In this document: in pieces, positions 1 through 4,243 of the stretch
Numbering within the stretch: position 1 is the first letter of the stretch
Layout of the letters: each line of letters begins with the position of its first letter
NCBI GenBank assembly: GCA_965223545.1
Contig: OZ245006.1
Coordinates: forward strand, 992,001-1,056,000
Length of the DNA stretch: 64,000 nucleotides
From: Planctomycetota bacterium
GTDB taxonomy: Bacteria; Planctomycetota; UBA1135; UBA2386
Reading direction: 5' to 3'
The notes under the pieces: generated by a model
What the model was told of the DNA's origin: nothing
The model's database searches: none
Seen by the model: only the letters and a program-made list of their open reading frames with translations
Made by a program: the position numbers and the translations under genes

Positions 1-62
1 CCGACGCCAGCTTGGCCGAGATGGAAGCGGCGTGGCAGGCGGCGAAGGAGTCGGAGCGCTGA
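1..62 (+). CDS. mazG: 3' end of a probable MazG nucleoside triphosphate pyrophosphohydrolase (partial)
   Basis: Frame from nt 3 reads DASLAEMEAAWQAAKESER*, resembling the MazG C-terminal 'sL.EMd.lW..AK' motif. Only 19 residues are visible. Confidence 0.55.
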   Translation, partial: DASLAEMEAAWQAAKESER

Positions 63-2170
63 GCGGCACCGCGCGGTTTCGGATCGCGATCGCCGCCATT
101 CTCGCCGCCCACCTAGCGGTGTTGGCCGTGCTGGCACACGTCACGCCGTGGACCACCGACGAGGGCAGCTACCTCGCCGCGGGGATGGCGCTGCGGCAGG
201 AGCTGCGCTTCGACGCGTTCAGCACGATCCTGCACGGCCCACTGCCGTTCTACAGCAACCAGCTGTGCTTCCCCGAGGGCGTGGCGGCCACGCCCGAGGC
301 GGTGATCGCGCACAAGCTCGACGCCCGCCTCGGCATGCTGCCGCTCGCTGCGCTCGCCGCCATCGGCACCGCGCTGCTGGCGCGAACCTGGTTCGGTCGC
401 CGCGCCGCGCTGGGCGCGCTGGTGCTGCACACGACCAACCCGATCGTGCTCGGCCACGGCTGCTTGATCACCGCCGACATGGCGCTCACCGCGGCGTGGG
501 TGTGGCTCGCGCTGGCGGCGGTCTTCTACCTGCGCGCGCCGGGCGCCGGGCGCGCAGCCCTGGTCGGCGTCGCGCTGGGGACCGCGCTGGCGACGAAGTA
601 CCTGGCGCTGTTCGCGCTCCCGGCGCTGGCGATCACCTTTGCCGGCAGCGCGCTGTTCGGCGCGAACGCGACCACCCCCATCGCCCACCGGCTGCGGACC
701 CTGCTGCTGTCGGCCGCGGTGTGCGCCACGGTCGCACTGGGCACGCTGCACGCCTGCTACGGCTTCCGCGCCGGCGGCTACGCGCTGCGGCCGCCAGCTC
801 CGGGCGCGCAGCACGCCCCACAGGACCCCGACGCCGGCGCACTGAGCTCGACCTTCCGCGGCCTGGTGGAAACACCGGGCGCCGCCGCCGCGCTGTCGCT
901 GCTGCCCGCGCCCTGGGTGCGCGGCGTCGACTACCAGAAGTTCTACAGCGAGGCCGGCGGCACCTCGACGCTGGGCGAGCGCGTCGGCCCCGGCTTTGCC
1001 AGCTACTTCGCCGTGGCGCTCGGCAGCAAGCTGCCGCTGGTCATGCTGGCACTGCTCGCCGCCGGCCTCGCCCTGCGGCGGCCGCGCTGGCCCCCGCACG
1101 CCGGCCTGCTGCTCGCCTGCATGATCGGCGTGCCGGCGGTCTATCTCTCGATCGGCACCGCGCTGCAGATCGGCGTGCGCTATCTGCTGCCGATCCTGCC
1201 ACTGTTGGCGATCCTCGGCGGCCGCGCCATCGCGCGGTGGAGTGCGGCGCCGGCCGGCCGCTGGGGATTGGCGGTCGCCGCGGTGGTGCTGCTGGCGGAA
1301 GTCGGCACCAGCTGGCCGCGCTACGTCGGCGCGTTCAACCCCCTGTTCCGCGCCCAGCCGTATCTGCTGTTCGCCGACTCGAACCTCGATTGGCGCAGCA
1401 GCTGGGAGCCCGACCACGACGACCGGACCCTGGCACAGCGCTACCCGCAGAGCGCAGCCCTGCCCCCCACCGGCGGGCCCCGGTTCGGCACGATCCGCGC
1501 GCGCGGCCTCGACCTCTCCCGCCCGGATCCCCGCGACCCCTCCCGCGTGCACCACTGGCTGCGGCGCTTCGCGCCGATCGACCGGCTCGGCGCGAACTAC
1601 GTGTTCGCCGTCGACGACGCCGCGTTCGCCGCCGCCATCGATCTCGGCGGTCCCGACGAAGACGCCCGCGGCGTCCTCGAGCTGGCGATCGCCCGGCTTG
1701 GGGCCGGCGACGTCGAGGGAGCCGAGGCGCTGCTGCACACCTGCACCGACCCGGACACCGCGATCGTCGCTCGCCTCGCGCAAGACCTGGCGGCCGCCCC
1801 CCCACTGCCCGGCCGCGCCCTGCACACCTGGCTGTCGCTCGGCCGCGCCGACCTGGTGCTGGCGGCGCCGGCGGCGCCCGAAGGCCTCCGCGCGCACGCC
1901 CACCTCGCCCGCGGCGAGCCGGACCGCGCCGCGGCGCTCCTGCGCGCGGTCGAGGAGCAGCGCCCGCTCACCATCGACGAGGTCATGCTGCTGGCCAGCA
2001 GTCTCGCGCCGAGCGCGCCGGAGCAGGCCAGCGCGGTCCTGACGCGGCACCGCCCGCCCGACGGCAGCCCCCTGCGGGCCGCCTACGACGCGCTCGAGCG
2101 CCAGCTGCGGGATGCCACCCAGGCGGTCCGACTGCTGCAGCGAGACGCCGGCGGGGCCGACCCGCGCTGA
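32..2170 (+). CDS. ArnT/PMT-like (GT-C fold) integral membrane glycosyltransferase with a C-terminal helical (TPR-like) extension
   Basis: Many TM segments; N-terminal T-DE motif (WTTDEGSYL); HGPL, LITADMA, ALATKYLA, QIGVRYLLP and DSNLDW motifs typical of GT39-like proteins. The true start may lie near nt 59, overlapping the upstream stop. Confidence 0.75.
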   Translation: MAGGEGVGALSGTARFRIAIAAILAAHLAVLAVLAHVTPWTTDEGSYLAAGMALRQELRFDAFSTILHGPLPFYSNQLCFPEGVAATPEAVIAHKLDARLGMLPLAALAAIGTALLARTWFGRRAALGALVLHTTNPIVLGHGCLITADMALTAAWVWLALAAVFYLRAPGAGRAALVGVALGTALATKYLALFALPALAITFAGSALFGANATTPIAHRLRTLLLSAAVCATVALGTLHACYGFRAGGYALRPPAPGAQHAPQDPDAGALSSTFRGLVETPGAAAALSLLPAPWVRGVDYQKFYSEAGGTSTLGERVGPGFASYFAVALGSKLPLVMLALLAAGLALRRPRWPPHAGLLLACMIGVPAVYLSIGTALQIGVRYLLPILPLLAILGGRAIARWSAAPAGRWGLAVAAVVLLAEVGTSWPRYVGAFNPLFRAQPYLLFADSNLDWRSSWEPDHDDRTLAQRYPQSAALPPTGGPRFGTIRARGLDLSRPDPRDPSRVHHWLRRFAPIDRLGANYVFAVDDAAFAAAIDLGGPDEDARGVLELAIARLGAGDVEGAEALLHTCTDPDTAIVARLAQDLAAAPPLPGRALHTWLSLGRADLVLAAPAAPEGLRAHAHLARGEPDRAAALLRAVEEQRPLTIDEVMLLASSLAPSAPEQASAVLTRHRPPDGSPLRAAYDALERQLRDATQAVRLLQRDAGGADPR

Positions 2171-2185
2171 CGGACCGCCGCCGCG

Positions 2186-2240
2186 CCGTCGGCGGCCCGA
2201 CGCACCGTCGGCGCGCCGACGGCCGTCGATCGCCCGACGG
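2186..2240. promoter_or_regulatory. Three tandem palindromes CCGTCG-N6-CGACG(G); candidate enhancer-binding-protein (UAS) sites
   Basis: Units at 2186-2202, 2205-2222 and 2223-2240, with extra CCGACA half-sites at 2249-2254 and 2257-2262, located ~110-160 nt upstream of a predicted sigma54 start site. Confidence 0.55.
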
Positions 2241-2321
2241 CGCCGGGGCCGACAGCCCGACACCCTCCTAACCAACTTGCCAACGCTGGTTTAGGTCACA
2301 CTCAAGAAGTTCCACGCCCAG

Positions 2322-2337
2322 TGGCACGCGATTCGCA
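2322..2337 (+). promoter_or_regulatory. sigma54 (RpoN) -24/-12 promoter
   Basis: TGGCACGCGATTCGCA has exact GG-N10-GC spacing and a TGGCACG -24 box (consensus TGGCACG-N4-TTGCW, one mismatch). Confidence 0.7.
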
Positions 2338-2347
2338 CCCCAGTCCG

Positions 2348-2549
2348 TCGGTGGAAAATGCAACGGGCCGACGGCCCGGTGGCAGGGATCTCGCCCGATG
2401 GGCCGCGTGCCCATCGGGCGGCTCCGTTTCCTCCAACCGCCAGCGCGCGAACGCTCGCCGGCCCCACACACCTTCGTCCCTCGAGGACACCCACACACCT
2501 GACGCTCGGACAGACCACATTGTGGCGCTGTCCGAGCGTTGCGCTTTTT
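2348..2549 (+). ncRNA. Putative sigma54-dependent small RNA (~200 nt)
   Basis: Lies between convergent genes, downstream of the -24/-12 box. Hairpins at 2364-2378 and 2392-2420 (perfect 12 bp), CCCACACACCT twice, then a terminal 12-bp hairpin and a T5 run. Confidence 0.55.
2502..2549 (+). terminator. Intrinsic terminator-like hairpin
   Basis: ACGCTCGGACAG (2502-2513) pairs perfectly with CTGTCCGAGCGT (2528-2539); TTTTT at 2545-2549 follows a short GCGC gap. It may also serve the convergent ETF-QO gene. Confidence 0.6.
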
Positions 2550-2584: not shown

Positions 2585-4243
2585 TCACATCCGCCGGTAG
2601 CGCGGGCCGCTGCCGCCCTCGCGGGGAGTCCAGCGCGGCCCCAGCACATCGGTCGCCTTGCAGTCGACGCAGTTGGGGGCGTTGATCTGCAGTGCGCCGT
2701 CGACGACCTCGTACACGCTCGCCGGGCACATCGCCTCGTAGAACCGCGCGACCTCGGGCGGCACTTCCCCCCCGACCTCGAGGTGGCTGGGGATGGTGTC
2801 GCGGGTGGCGTTGCCCGACTTGAAGACCGCGTCGACCTTGCTGAACGTCAAGACGCCGTCCGCCGGCGCAGCGGCCGCGGCGCCACCGGCCCGCTTGGCC
2901 TCGGCGGCGTCTTCCTCGACCGCGACGCGCCCCCCGAGCAGGCGCCCACCGCTCGCAGTCATCAGCGCCGCCTTGAGCCCGCCGCGGAAGAAGCCGCTCT
3001 TGAACGCCAACCGCATGTTGCGGGTCTTGTGCAGGTCTTCGGTCACGTAGGACGCCTTGCACAGCCGGTCGTACTCGGCGAGCTTGCCCGCCGAAGGATC
3101 GTCGGCGACCAACGCCGTGTAGATCGCGCGCGCCGCGTAGATCCCGGACTGGATCGCGTAGTGGATCCCCTTCAGCGAGGGAACGTCGACGAAGCCGGCG
3201 CTGTCGCCCAGCACGACGCAGCCATCGCCGGAGCGGCGCTCGGCCAGCGAGTAGTAGCCGCCTTCCGGAATCGTCTTCGCACCCCACTCGAGCAGCTCGC
3301 CGCCATCGAGCACACCGCGGAACAGCGGGTGCTGCTTCATGCGCTGCAGCAGCGCGTGCACGTCCAACCCGGCGTCCTTGTAGTCCAGCCCGACGACCAA
3401 GCCCAACGCCACCAGGTTGGGCTCGAGCGGATACATGAAGCTGCCGCCGAACGCATCGCGCGGCAGCGGCCACCCCATGGTGTGCACCACGTCCTGCAGC
3501 GGCTTGCCGGTCTGCCACAGCTCCTTGACGCCGAGCGCGAAGATCTGCGGGTTGGGCGCGGCGATCCCCTGCCACTGCTCCCAGGCCTGGGCCAGCAGGC
3601 CGCGCGTGCCCTCGGACAAGGCGACGACCTTGGCCGACAGGTCGGTGGGCGGCTCGTAGTTGCCGCCCTGGTTGCCGTCCCGATCCAGCCCCATCGGCGT
3701 GGTGCGCACGCCGACCACGCGCTGGCCGTCGACCAACAGGGACGCCGCCGGAAACCCGGTGAAGACGTTGACGCCCGCGGCCTCGGCGCGCTCGCCCATC
3801 CACTGCACGACCTCGCAGATCGAGGCGACGTAGTTGCCCTTGTTGTGCATCGTCGGCGGCGTCGGAATGCGCAGCGCCCGCTTCTCGGTCAGCATGTAGA
3901 CCGACTCGCGGTCGACGCGGGTGCGGAACGGAAAGTCGGCGTCGGTGAGATCGGGGAACAGCTCGCGCAGCGCGCGCGGGTTGACCACCGCCCCCGACAG
4001 ATTGTGCTGGCCTAGCGACTCGGCCTTCTCCAACACGCCGATCTCGACCTCGCCCGGGCCGTCGCCGCGCTCGTTGCCGATCTTCACCAAGCGCGCCAGC
4101 TCGATCGCGCCCGCCAGGCCGGCGGGGCCGGCACCGACGAACAGGACGTCCATCGGCACGCCGTCCTCGGACGGCGCCTCGTTGAGGATCAGTCGATCGA
4201 GGGGCAGCGCGGGCTGGTGCTTGGCGGGGACGATCTGGGCCAT
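2585..4243 (-). CDS. Electron transfer flavoprotein-quinone oxidoreductase (ETF-QO/FixC-like)
   Basis: FAD motif VGAGPAGLA; HNLSGAV, GVKELW, GAKTIPEGG and KGIHYAI motifs; C-terminal ferredoxin segment CPASVY...CVDCKAT and EGGSGPRY. Confidence 0.9.
   Translation of the reverse strand: MAQIVPAKHQPALPLDRLILNEAPSEDGVPMDVLFVGAGPAGLAGAIELARLVKIGNERGDGPGEVEIGVLEKAESLGQHNLSGAVVNPRALRELFPDLTDADFPFRTRVDRESVYMLTEKRALRIPTPPTMHNKGNYVASICEVVQWMGERAEAAGVNVFTGFPAASLLVDGQRVVGVRTTPMGLDRDGNQGGNYEPPTDLSAKVVALSEGTRGLLAQAWEQWQGIAAPNPQIFALGVKELWQTGKPLQDVVHTMGWPLPRDAFGGSFMYPLEPNLVALGLVVGLDYKDAGLDVHALLQRMKQHPLFRGVLDGGELLEWGAKTIPEGGYYSLAERRSGDGCVVLGDSAGFVDVPSLKGIHYAIQSGIYAARAIYTALVADDPSAGKLAEYDRLCKASYVTEDLHKTRNMRLAFKSGFFRGGLKAALMTASGGRLLGGRVAVEEDAAEAKRAGGAAAAAPADGVLTFSKVDAVFKSGNATRDTIPSHLEVGGEVPPEVARFYEAMCPASVYEVVDGALQINAPNCVDCKATDVLGPRWTPREGGSGPRYRRM

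Follow-up and report, generated by a model that had tools for sequence, protein, structure and literature searches.

A predicted sigma54-dependent small RNA gene of one Planctomycetota family, with a genome-specific 3' tail that may act as a sponge

Described small RNAs and the planctomycetal locus

Pxr from Myxococcus is an intergenic small RNA of about 100 nt that is expressed from a sigma54 promoter, is restricted to one lineage and has paralogs in some genomes (PMC5568312). The Qrr1-5 RNAs of Vibrio possess sigma54 promoters with upstream activator sites, occur in several copies and end in terminators (PMC10162802; PMC9732341). QrrX and AgvB are sponges that base-pair with a small RNA (PMC9732341; 10.1101/2021.04.25.441314).

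The RNA gene described here is located in a stretch of 64,000 nt, referred to as the window, from the Planctomycetota bacterium GCA_965223545.1 (contig OZ245006.1, positions 992,001-1,056,000, forward strand). It occupies the gap between two convergent genes, for a glycosyltransferase (+) and an oxidoreductase (-), in the order mazG, glycosyltransferase gene, RNA gene (Table 1); the gene calls for this genome come from a simple in-house caller. The window RNA resembles Pxr in being intergenic, in its predicted sigma54 promoter, in its restriction to a lineage and in the extra copies found in some genomes. However, Pxr folds into three stems and the window RNA into two, and there is no Rfam match to Pxr. 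Pxr furthermore adjoins, and lies behind, the activator gene nla19, whereas the window RNA lies behind mazG (PMC5568312). No activator gene was seen among the immediate neighbours of the RNA gene, and mazG is found at most 1.5 kb upstream of the RNA in 60 of 71 family loci.

With the Qrr RNAs, the family of the window RNA shares the sigma54 promoter, the (predicted) upstream activator sites, the presence of several copies and the terminator at the end. In contrast, Qrr requires Hfq (PMC10162802; PMC9732341), a protein found in 0 of the 91 genomes of the family that carries the window RNA. The Qrr enhancer motif likewise differs from the array of heptamers phased by 11 bp that we describe below, and there is no sequence match to Qrr. 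CrcZ and GlmY are sigma54-driven, non-coding decoys for proteins, and CrcZ, CsrB/RsmZ and GlmY carry purine-rich unpaired motifs, their partner proteins being Hfq, CsrA and RapZ. The window RNA is similar to this group in its predicted non-coding nature and its purine-rich unpaired motifs, and to CrcZ and GlmY also in its sigma54-type promoter, but the partners Hfq and RapZ were each found in 0, and CsrA in 1, of the 91 family genomes. As judged by Rfam score, the RNA is not a member of Pxr, Qrr, CrcZ, GlmY/GlmZ or CsrB/Rsm, and neither its neighbourhood nor its partner protein would place it in one of the described families. The 3' tail of the window copy is comparable to QrrX and AgvB in that it is complementary to a candidate small RNA and is predicted to be able to neutralise it. 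It differs from them as a predicted read-through extension of another small RNA in a genome without Hfq, and its perfect 21-bp duplex, a prediction only, would reach into the terminator stem of the partner.

Table 1. Coordinates of the RNA gene, its control region, its neighbours and its candidate partner (positions refer to the window, except for those prefixed C1 or L419)
Feature	Position	Strand	Remark
mazG	C1:991289-992062		ends at window start; gene calls
PMT-like membrane glycosyltransferase gene, upstream neighbour	32..2170	+	weak PF13231 match, under cut-off
Enhancer array: three pairs of CCG(A/T)CGG-like heptamers (six in all), 11 bp apart within a pair	2186..2240	.	predicted sigma54-activator sites
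AT-richer palindrome in conserved AT-rich band	2267..2295	.	possible IHF/HU bending site
Sigma54 -24/-12 box, GG-N10-GC	2322..2337	+	found before 76/77 aligned copies
Conserved core RNA, about 85 nt	2347..2430	+	model match 73.6 bits (window copy in training set)
Core: purine-rich unpaired 5' strand	2350-2358	+	
Core: bulged central hairpin	2360-2384	+	
Core: GGCAGGGA linker	2381-2388	+	
Core: terminator hairpin (12 bp)	2392-2420	+	decayed U-tract in window copy
Genome-specific 3' tail, predicted read-through	2431..2549	+	weakest U-tract; no counterpart tail among other fetched copies
Antisense site	2451..2474	+	23/24 nt complementary to C1:7480780-7480803; 21 unbroken (2454-2474)
Second C/A-rich 11-mer, shorter site for same partner	2490..2500	+	first copy at 2463
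Second terminator: 12-bp hairpin plus T5	2502-2539; T5 2545-2549	+	terminator-like site
ETF-ubiquinone-oxidoreductase-like gene, convergent	2585..4243	-	PF21162 + PF05187; gene call
Candidate second sRNA: hairpin, G/U-rich single strand, terminator	C1:7480746-7480828 (L419:3747-3829)	+	

The control region and the conserved core

A preliminary description of this gap, made from its letters only, had named palindromes, a promoter box, hairpins, a duplicated 11-mer and a terminal T5, all of which are present at the positions it gave. The GG-N10-GC box that it took for a promoter is conserved in relatives: it was found at a fixed distance from the RNA in 76 of 77 homologs, compared with a chance rate of 0.007 for a band of 9 positions, and 26-28 nt separate it from a conserved GTGG in 70 of the 77 aligned copies. 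Because the box sits at this fixed distance before GTGG, transcription is predicted to start at about 2347-2349. The genome possesses the corresponding proteins as well, with two rpoN genes and 16 strong sigma54-activator domains; the relatives have between 9 and 24 activators per genome.

The three palindromes correspond to pairs of heptamer half-sites, at 2186/2197, 2205/2216 and 2223/2234. In homologs, CCG(A/T)CGG-like heptamers cluster 100-170 nt upstream of the box, with a mean density of 4.0 per 110 nt versus 0.99 in random genome windows, a ratio that is partly circular because the motif was derived from the same sequences. The spacing is free of this circularity: adjacent heptamers are 11 bp apart in 84 of 230 cases, further peaks occur at 22, 33 and 43-44 bp, and the heptamers should therefore lie on one face of the helix. 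The window promoter reaches a heptamer score of 7, while the other 69 intergenic sigma54 boxes listed, out of 75 found, score 3 or less. The array is consequently confined, among the boxes listed, to the window promoter, which suggests that a dedicated activator serves mainly this one target. Besides it, intergenic DNA of this genome holds a cluster of seven enhancer-like heptamers at only one place, C1:6034948-6035183.

The IHF site proposed in the preliminary description fares less evenly. The AT share of the homologs, about 0.27 otherwise, reaches 0.46-0.49 at a distance of 20-60 nt ahead of the box, so that an AT-rich band is indeed conserved, and three genes of the HU/IHF family are present in the window's genome. 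Matches to an IHF consensus of at least 7/9 occur in 41 of 76 homologs, compared with 4 of 76 for a control region far away, but the best match in the window is only 6/9, and binding of IHF at the band is only suggested. From the way sigma54 promoters work we infer that one dedicated activator would bind the heptamer array, that the DNA would bend at the AT-rich band, and that an RNA of roughly 85 nt would be switched on sharply by a signal, in a Qrr- or Pxr-like manner. As the RNA comes with a complete and conserved control region consisting of a promoter, a phased enhancer motif and a terminator, both the signal and the activator are directly testable.

Other sigma54 boxes of this genome deserve a brief description. 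Strong intergenic boxes at C1:5117416 (-) and C1:277328 (+) precede short frames missed by the gene caller, the former small and cysteine-rich, the latter small and hydrophobic. Boxes at C1:6704723 (-), 3630109 (-) and 2003618 (+) each precede a gene, and these genes we take, from their first residues, to resemble those for a small heat-shock protein, RtcB and GroEL, respectively; the RtcB-like gene near C1:3630109 adjoins an RtcR-like activator.

The segment 2345-2555 folds at z = -5.0, with none of 200 shuffles equally stable. In relatives, changes on both sides affect 20 of 22 base pairs, and 89% of the cells are paired compared with 41-50% in slid controls, figures that are somewhat overstated because the alignments were fitted to the model structure and the relatives are not independent. 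The same covariation pattern was present in 31 distinct metagenome rows, and eight covarying pairs were already seen in the first MAFFT alignment. While the stems covary, the unpaired blocks are kept in sequence (GGCAGGGA in 71, GTGGAAAG in 63 and GTGGTG in 58 of the 77 copies), the terminator loop often reads GUGGUG among homologs, and 57 of the 77 copies contain at least three GTGG words. Of the structured RNA of about 200 nt that had been proposed from the window's letters, the structure stands but the length does not: the conserved unit measures about 85 nt.

A DNA search of 61 genomes returned a few matches that start exactly at the -24 box. Of the 91 family genomes, 80 gave a match to a covariance model built from nine aligned copies of eight genomes, 79 of them at E <= 4.3e-6 and one at 9e-4; these include 30 of the 31 near-complete family genomes and 72 of the 83 genomes outside the training set. 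For the alignment, 71 of the 80 positive genomes supplied 77 copies. Tandem pairs, about 280-325 nt apart, occur in six genomes (L168, L169, L173, L208, L209 and L219), where each copy has its own sigma54 box and one copy has diverged in most pairs, those of L169 being identical. Four genomes that are 81-92% complete (G031, G028, G096 and G097) gave no copy even in a separate small search and are possible cases of loss. Outside the family the model gave only weak matches, at the level of the order (8 of 108 genomes), the class (7 of 130) and the phylum (15 of 148); no sigma54 box was present at the 14 of these that were inspected. Beyond this one family the RNA was hence not convincingly found in the phylum. 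A metagenome scan yielded 71 loci, of which 70 were examined and 32 are members; neither of the two loci from a viral scan is a member. A loose pattern scan of genome contigs gave, among the matches listed, 3 true loci in 80 examined, the rest being mostly chance. The taxon-labelled records bearing the RNA (L087, L088 and L115, again among the matches listed) are labelled Planctomycetota or as a family inside that phylum. A second weak match of the model in the window's genome, at C1:942572, is a plain terminator.

Rfam 15 assigned no family at gathering threshold to the window (best E = 3.5), and the three weak matches obtained with 12 homolog loci do not lie on the RNA, in agreement with the earlier remark that no recognised family could be matched to it. 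In the open-access papers searched, we found no description of a planctomycetal regulatory sRNA of such kind. The one RNA run, with a word share of 0.03, gave only short matches that stem from other organisms; it leaves 2216-2566 uncovered and is uninformative. Judged from the phased heptamers, the conserved box and the presence of the model in 80 of 91 family genomes, the earlier view of an enhancer-controlled, sigma54-type RNA gene holds, and we are highly confident in predicting that the members of one Planctomycetota family possess an independent gene for a non-coding RNA, mostly situated directly behind mazG and equipped with a phased enhancer array and a sigma54 promoter.

How the core RNA might act

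Hfq and RapZ are missing from all 91 family genomes, the single CsrA lies on a short contig, and ProQ is missing from the window's genome, the one in which it was sought. The lack of Hfq and RapZ and the near lack of CsrA leave no room for the decoy mechanisms known so far or for pairing assisted by Hfq. Since these hosts are devoid of the proteins needed by comparable sigma54 RNAs, the system offers a handle on RNA regulation that is free of Hfq. The conserved unpaired blocks beside covarying stems fit pairing seeds and protein sites alike. Judging from general sRNA anatomy, we lean slightly towards base pairing as the mode of action: the RNA would pair in trans, without Hfq, via its unpaired blocks GUGGAAAG and GGCAGGGA and the GUGGUG terminator loop, and its targets would be pyrimidine- or C/A-rich stretches of mRNA.

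In the relatives, 52 sites are perfectly complementary to the 5' block over 11 nt, and no orthologous gene is common to them except for one coding-region pair. Six of the 52 lie in start regions in sense orientation versus none in antisense orientation, a bias that we attribute to composition as words of the same composition behave alike (P = 0.18). Of the 91 genomes, 7 contain a complement to two blocks, a frequency on a par with that of the reversed control, and complements of the core seeds are not enriched in the leaders of the window's genome. Ranking duplexes of both blocks against the 5675 start regions of one genome gave G+C-driven matches only, and the search for rRNA complements returned nothing beyond one 7-mer. 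The cross-genome target tests cover perfect matches only, and their outcome is therefore compatible with a pairing that involves G-U pairs or bulges.

Two other readings of the core have to be weighed. The promoter could drive a small protein, as the window has an ATG after a purine-rich stretch that opens a frame of 80 amino acids (2358-2600), or the element could merely be the terminator of a mazG operon, given the frequent position of mazG upstream. However, the site of the frame has no ATG in 52 of 77 copies, the frames in the remaining 25, with lengths of 4-200 amino acids, are unrelated, and Pfam has no match for the window's frame; the preliminary description, too, had seen no credible protein gene downstream. 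A mere terminator, in turn, would need neither a promoter nor an enhancer nor conserved 5' blocks, and the tandem copies each retain a promoter of their own. Both versions are already largely refuted, and we hold them to be very improbable. A decoy for an RNA-binding protein, with the unpaired GUGG/GGA repeats and the bulged stem as protein sites in the manner of CsrB, CrcZ or GlmY, is a more serious contender. The recurrence of GTGG words in most copies speaks for it, as do the failure to find a conserved pairing target, the tandem duplication in six genomes, which would suit titration, and the precedent of the sigma54-driven decoys CrcZ and GlmY, described above. Yet the RNA is short, its blocks do not repeat one another identically, and with CsrA missing from all but one of the 91 genomes, Hfq and RapZ missing from the family and ProQ from the window's genome, a new protein would have to be invoked; we regard a decoy as possible but doubtful.

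The 3' tail of the window copy and its candidate partner

The U-tract behind the first terminator of the window copy is the weakest of 111 copies, and this copy also lacks the GUGGUG loop. The sequence TTCCTCC (2428-2434), which had been likened to an anti-Shine-Dalgarno element, is present but not conserved; it occupies the position of the U-run in homologs and represents the decayed tract, so that the earlier role finds no support. With the U-tract of the first terminator lost, transcription probably proceeds to 2549. The tail itself folds at z = -4.3 and has no counterpart in the other fetched copies; among the 111 copies, only that of the window has the C/A-rich motif 3' of the RNA. The idea that the tail contains the RNA a second time, in inverted form, found no support.

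The duplicated 11-mer belongs to a 21-bp complement of another intergenic element, a relationship that the preliminary description had missed. This element, about 6.5 Mb away, lies between divergent genes with a uridylyltransferase domain and with likeness to N-acetylhexosamine-1-kinase; it measures about 85 nt, has a folding z of -4.9 and terminates in a stem followed by U5. The antisense match covers its unpaired, G/U-rich part and the first bases of the stem. The next-best match of the tail among genome sites with the core motif is 15 nt, versus 21 bp here. In a control, lone matches of 21-29 nt were found for 39 of 1633 intergenic segments. In 16 cases the match was antisense, and 6 of the antisense matches were to intergenic DNA, this pair included. 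The partner has no Rfam match. A reading as a CRISPR repeat (Rfam E = 0.17) was discarded since the genome has no array, and a reading as an attenuator is weak as the element is missing before the same kinase gene in five relatives.

Of 3697 leaders, 13 contain the complement of the partner seed, CACACACC, in sense orientation and one contains it in antisense orientation, with 3.2-3.8 expected; permutations of its letters have a 1.5-fold bias. By a crude predictor, 9 of the 13 genes look exported, compared with 45% in a composition control that is not clearly lower.

In the mechanism that we propose for the tail, it would pair over 21 bp with the candidate sRNA and inactivate it as a sponge. 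We put forward a working sponge as a tentative possibility, the status of the partner as an sRNA being itself a prediction. The idea stands on one genome, because the partner has no recognisable promoter, no convincing homolog among 90 relatives and no counterpart in the same gene pair of the relative G009. Evenly poised between true and false is, in our estimate for the tail, that the core is a real sRNA but the tail no sponge, and that the 24-nt match is the relic of a short inverted duplication, with the hairpin at 2502-2549 ending read-through that would come from mazG or the convergent gene. Tail and partner are indeed present in the window's genome only, repeated 21-mers occur elsewhere in 225 of 1633 intergenic segments, and a partner promoter is not visible. 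Against a relic it counts that the match covers an unpaired, seed-like region in an element with a terminator at its end, that the motif recurs downstream, that a real leader (C1:1069714) carries it twice, and that the tail sits on the very copy with the weakest first U-tract. The tail might also work on the minus strand, as an RNA derived from the 3'-UTR of the oxidoreductase gene that carries two G/U-rich seeds and is a paralog of the partner. It would then share the seed and the first stem arm with the partner, but the second stem arm is mismatched, no U-run comes after it on that strand, and a terminator-like site was seen in the tail on the plus strand alone; we deem such a minus-strand origin of the tail's function improbable.

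Should the tail prove to be a sponge, it would illustrate a simple evolutionary route from an sRNA to an sRNA-plus-sponge by loss of a U-tract. The joint reading, in which a family-wide sigma54 regulator operates without Hfq, CsrA and RapZ and its tail sponges a recently arisen sRNA directed against the C/A-rich leaders of mRNAs for exported proteins, appears rather unlikely to us as a whole. Were it true, planctomycetes would possess either a chaperone-free mechanism or a new RNA-binding protein, and the decay of the U-tract would have conferred a second job on what became a two-part RNA.

Leaders of the window's genome also contain a motif, CCACACACC, positioned 10-35 nt before starts, nine times in sense and never in antisense orientation, for instance at C1:1069714, 2283741, 2308235, 2779312 and 1058100; one leader holds it doubled, and the genes often have signal peptides. 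The usual 3' tail of 16S rRNA is GGATCACCTCC, from which this genome deviates with GGATTACCTCC, and a Shine-Dalgarno-like motif precedes only about 30% of its called genes.
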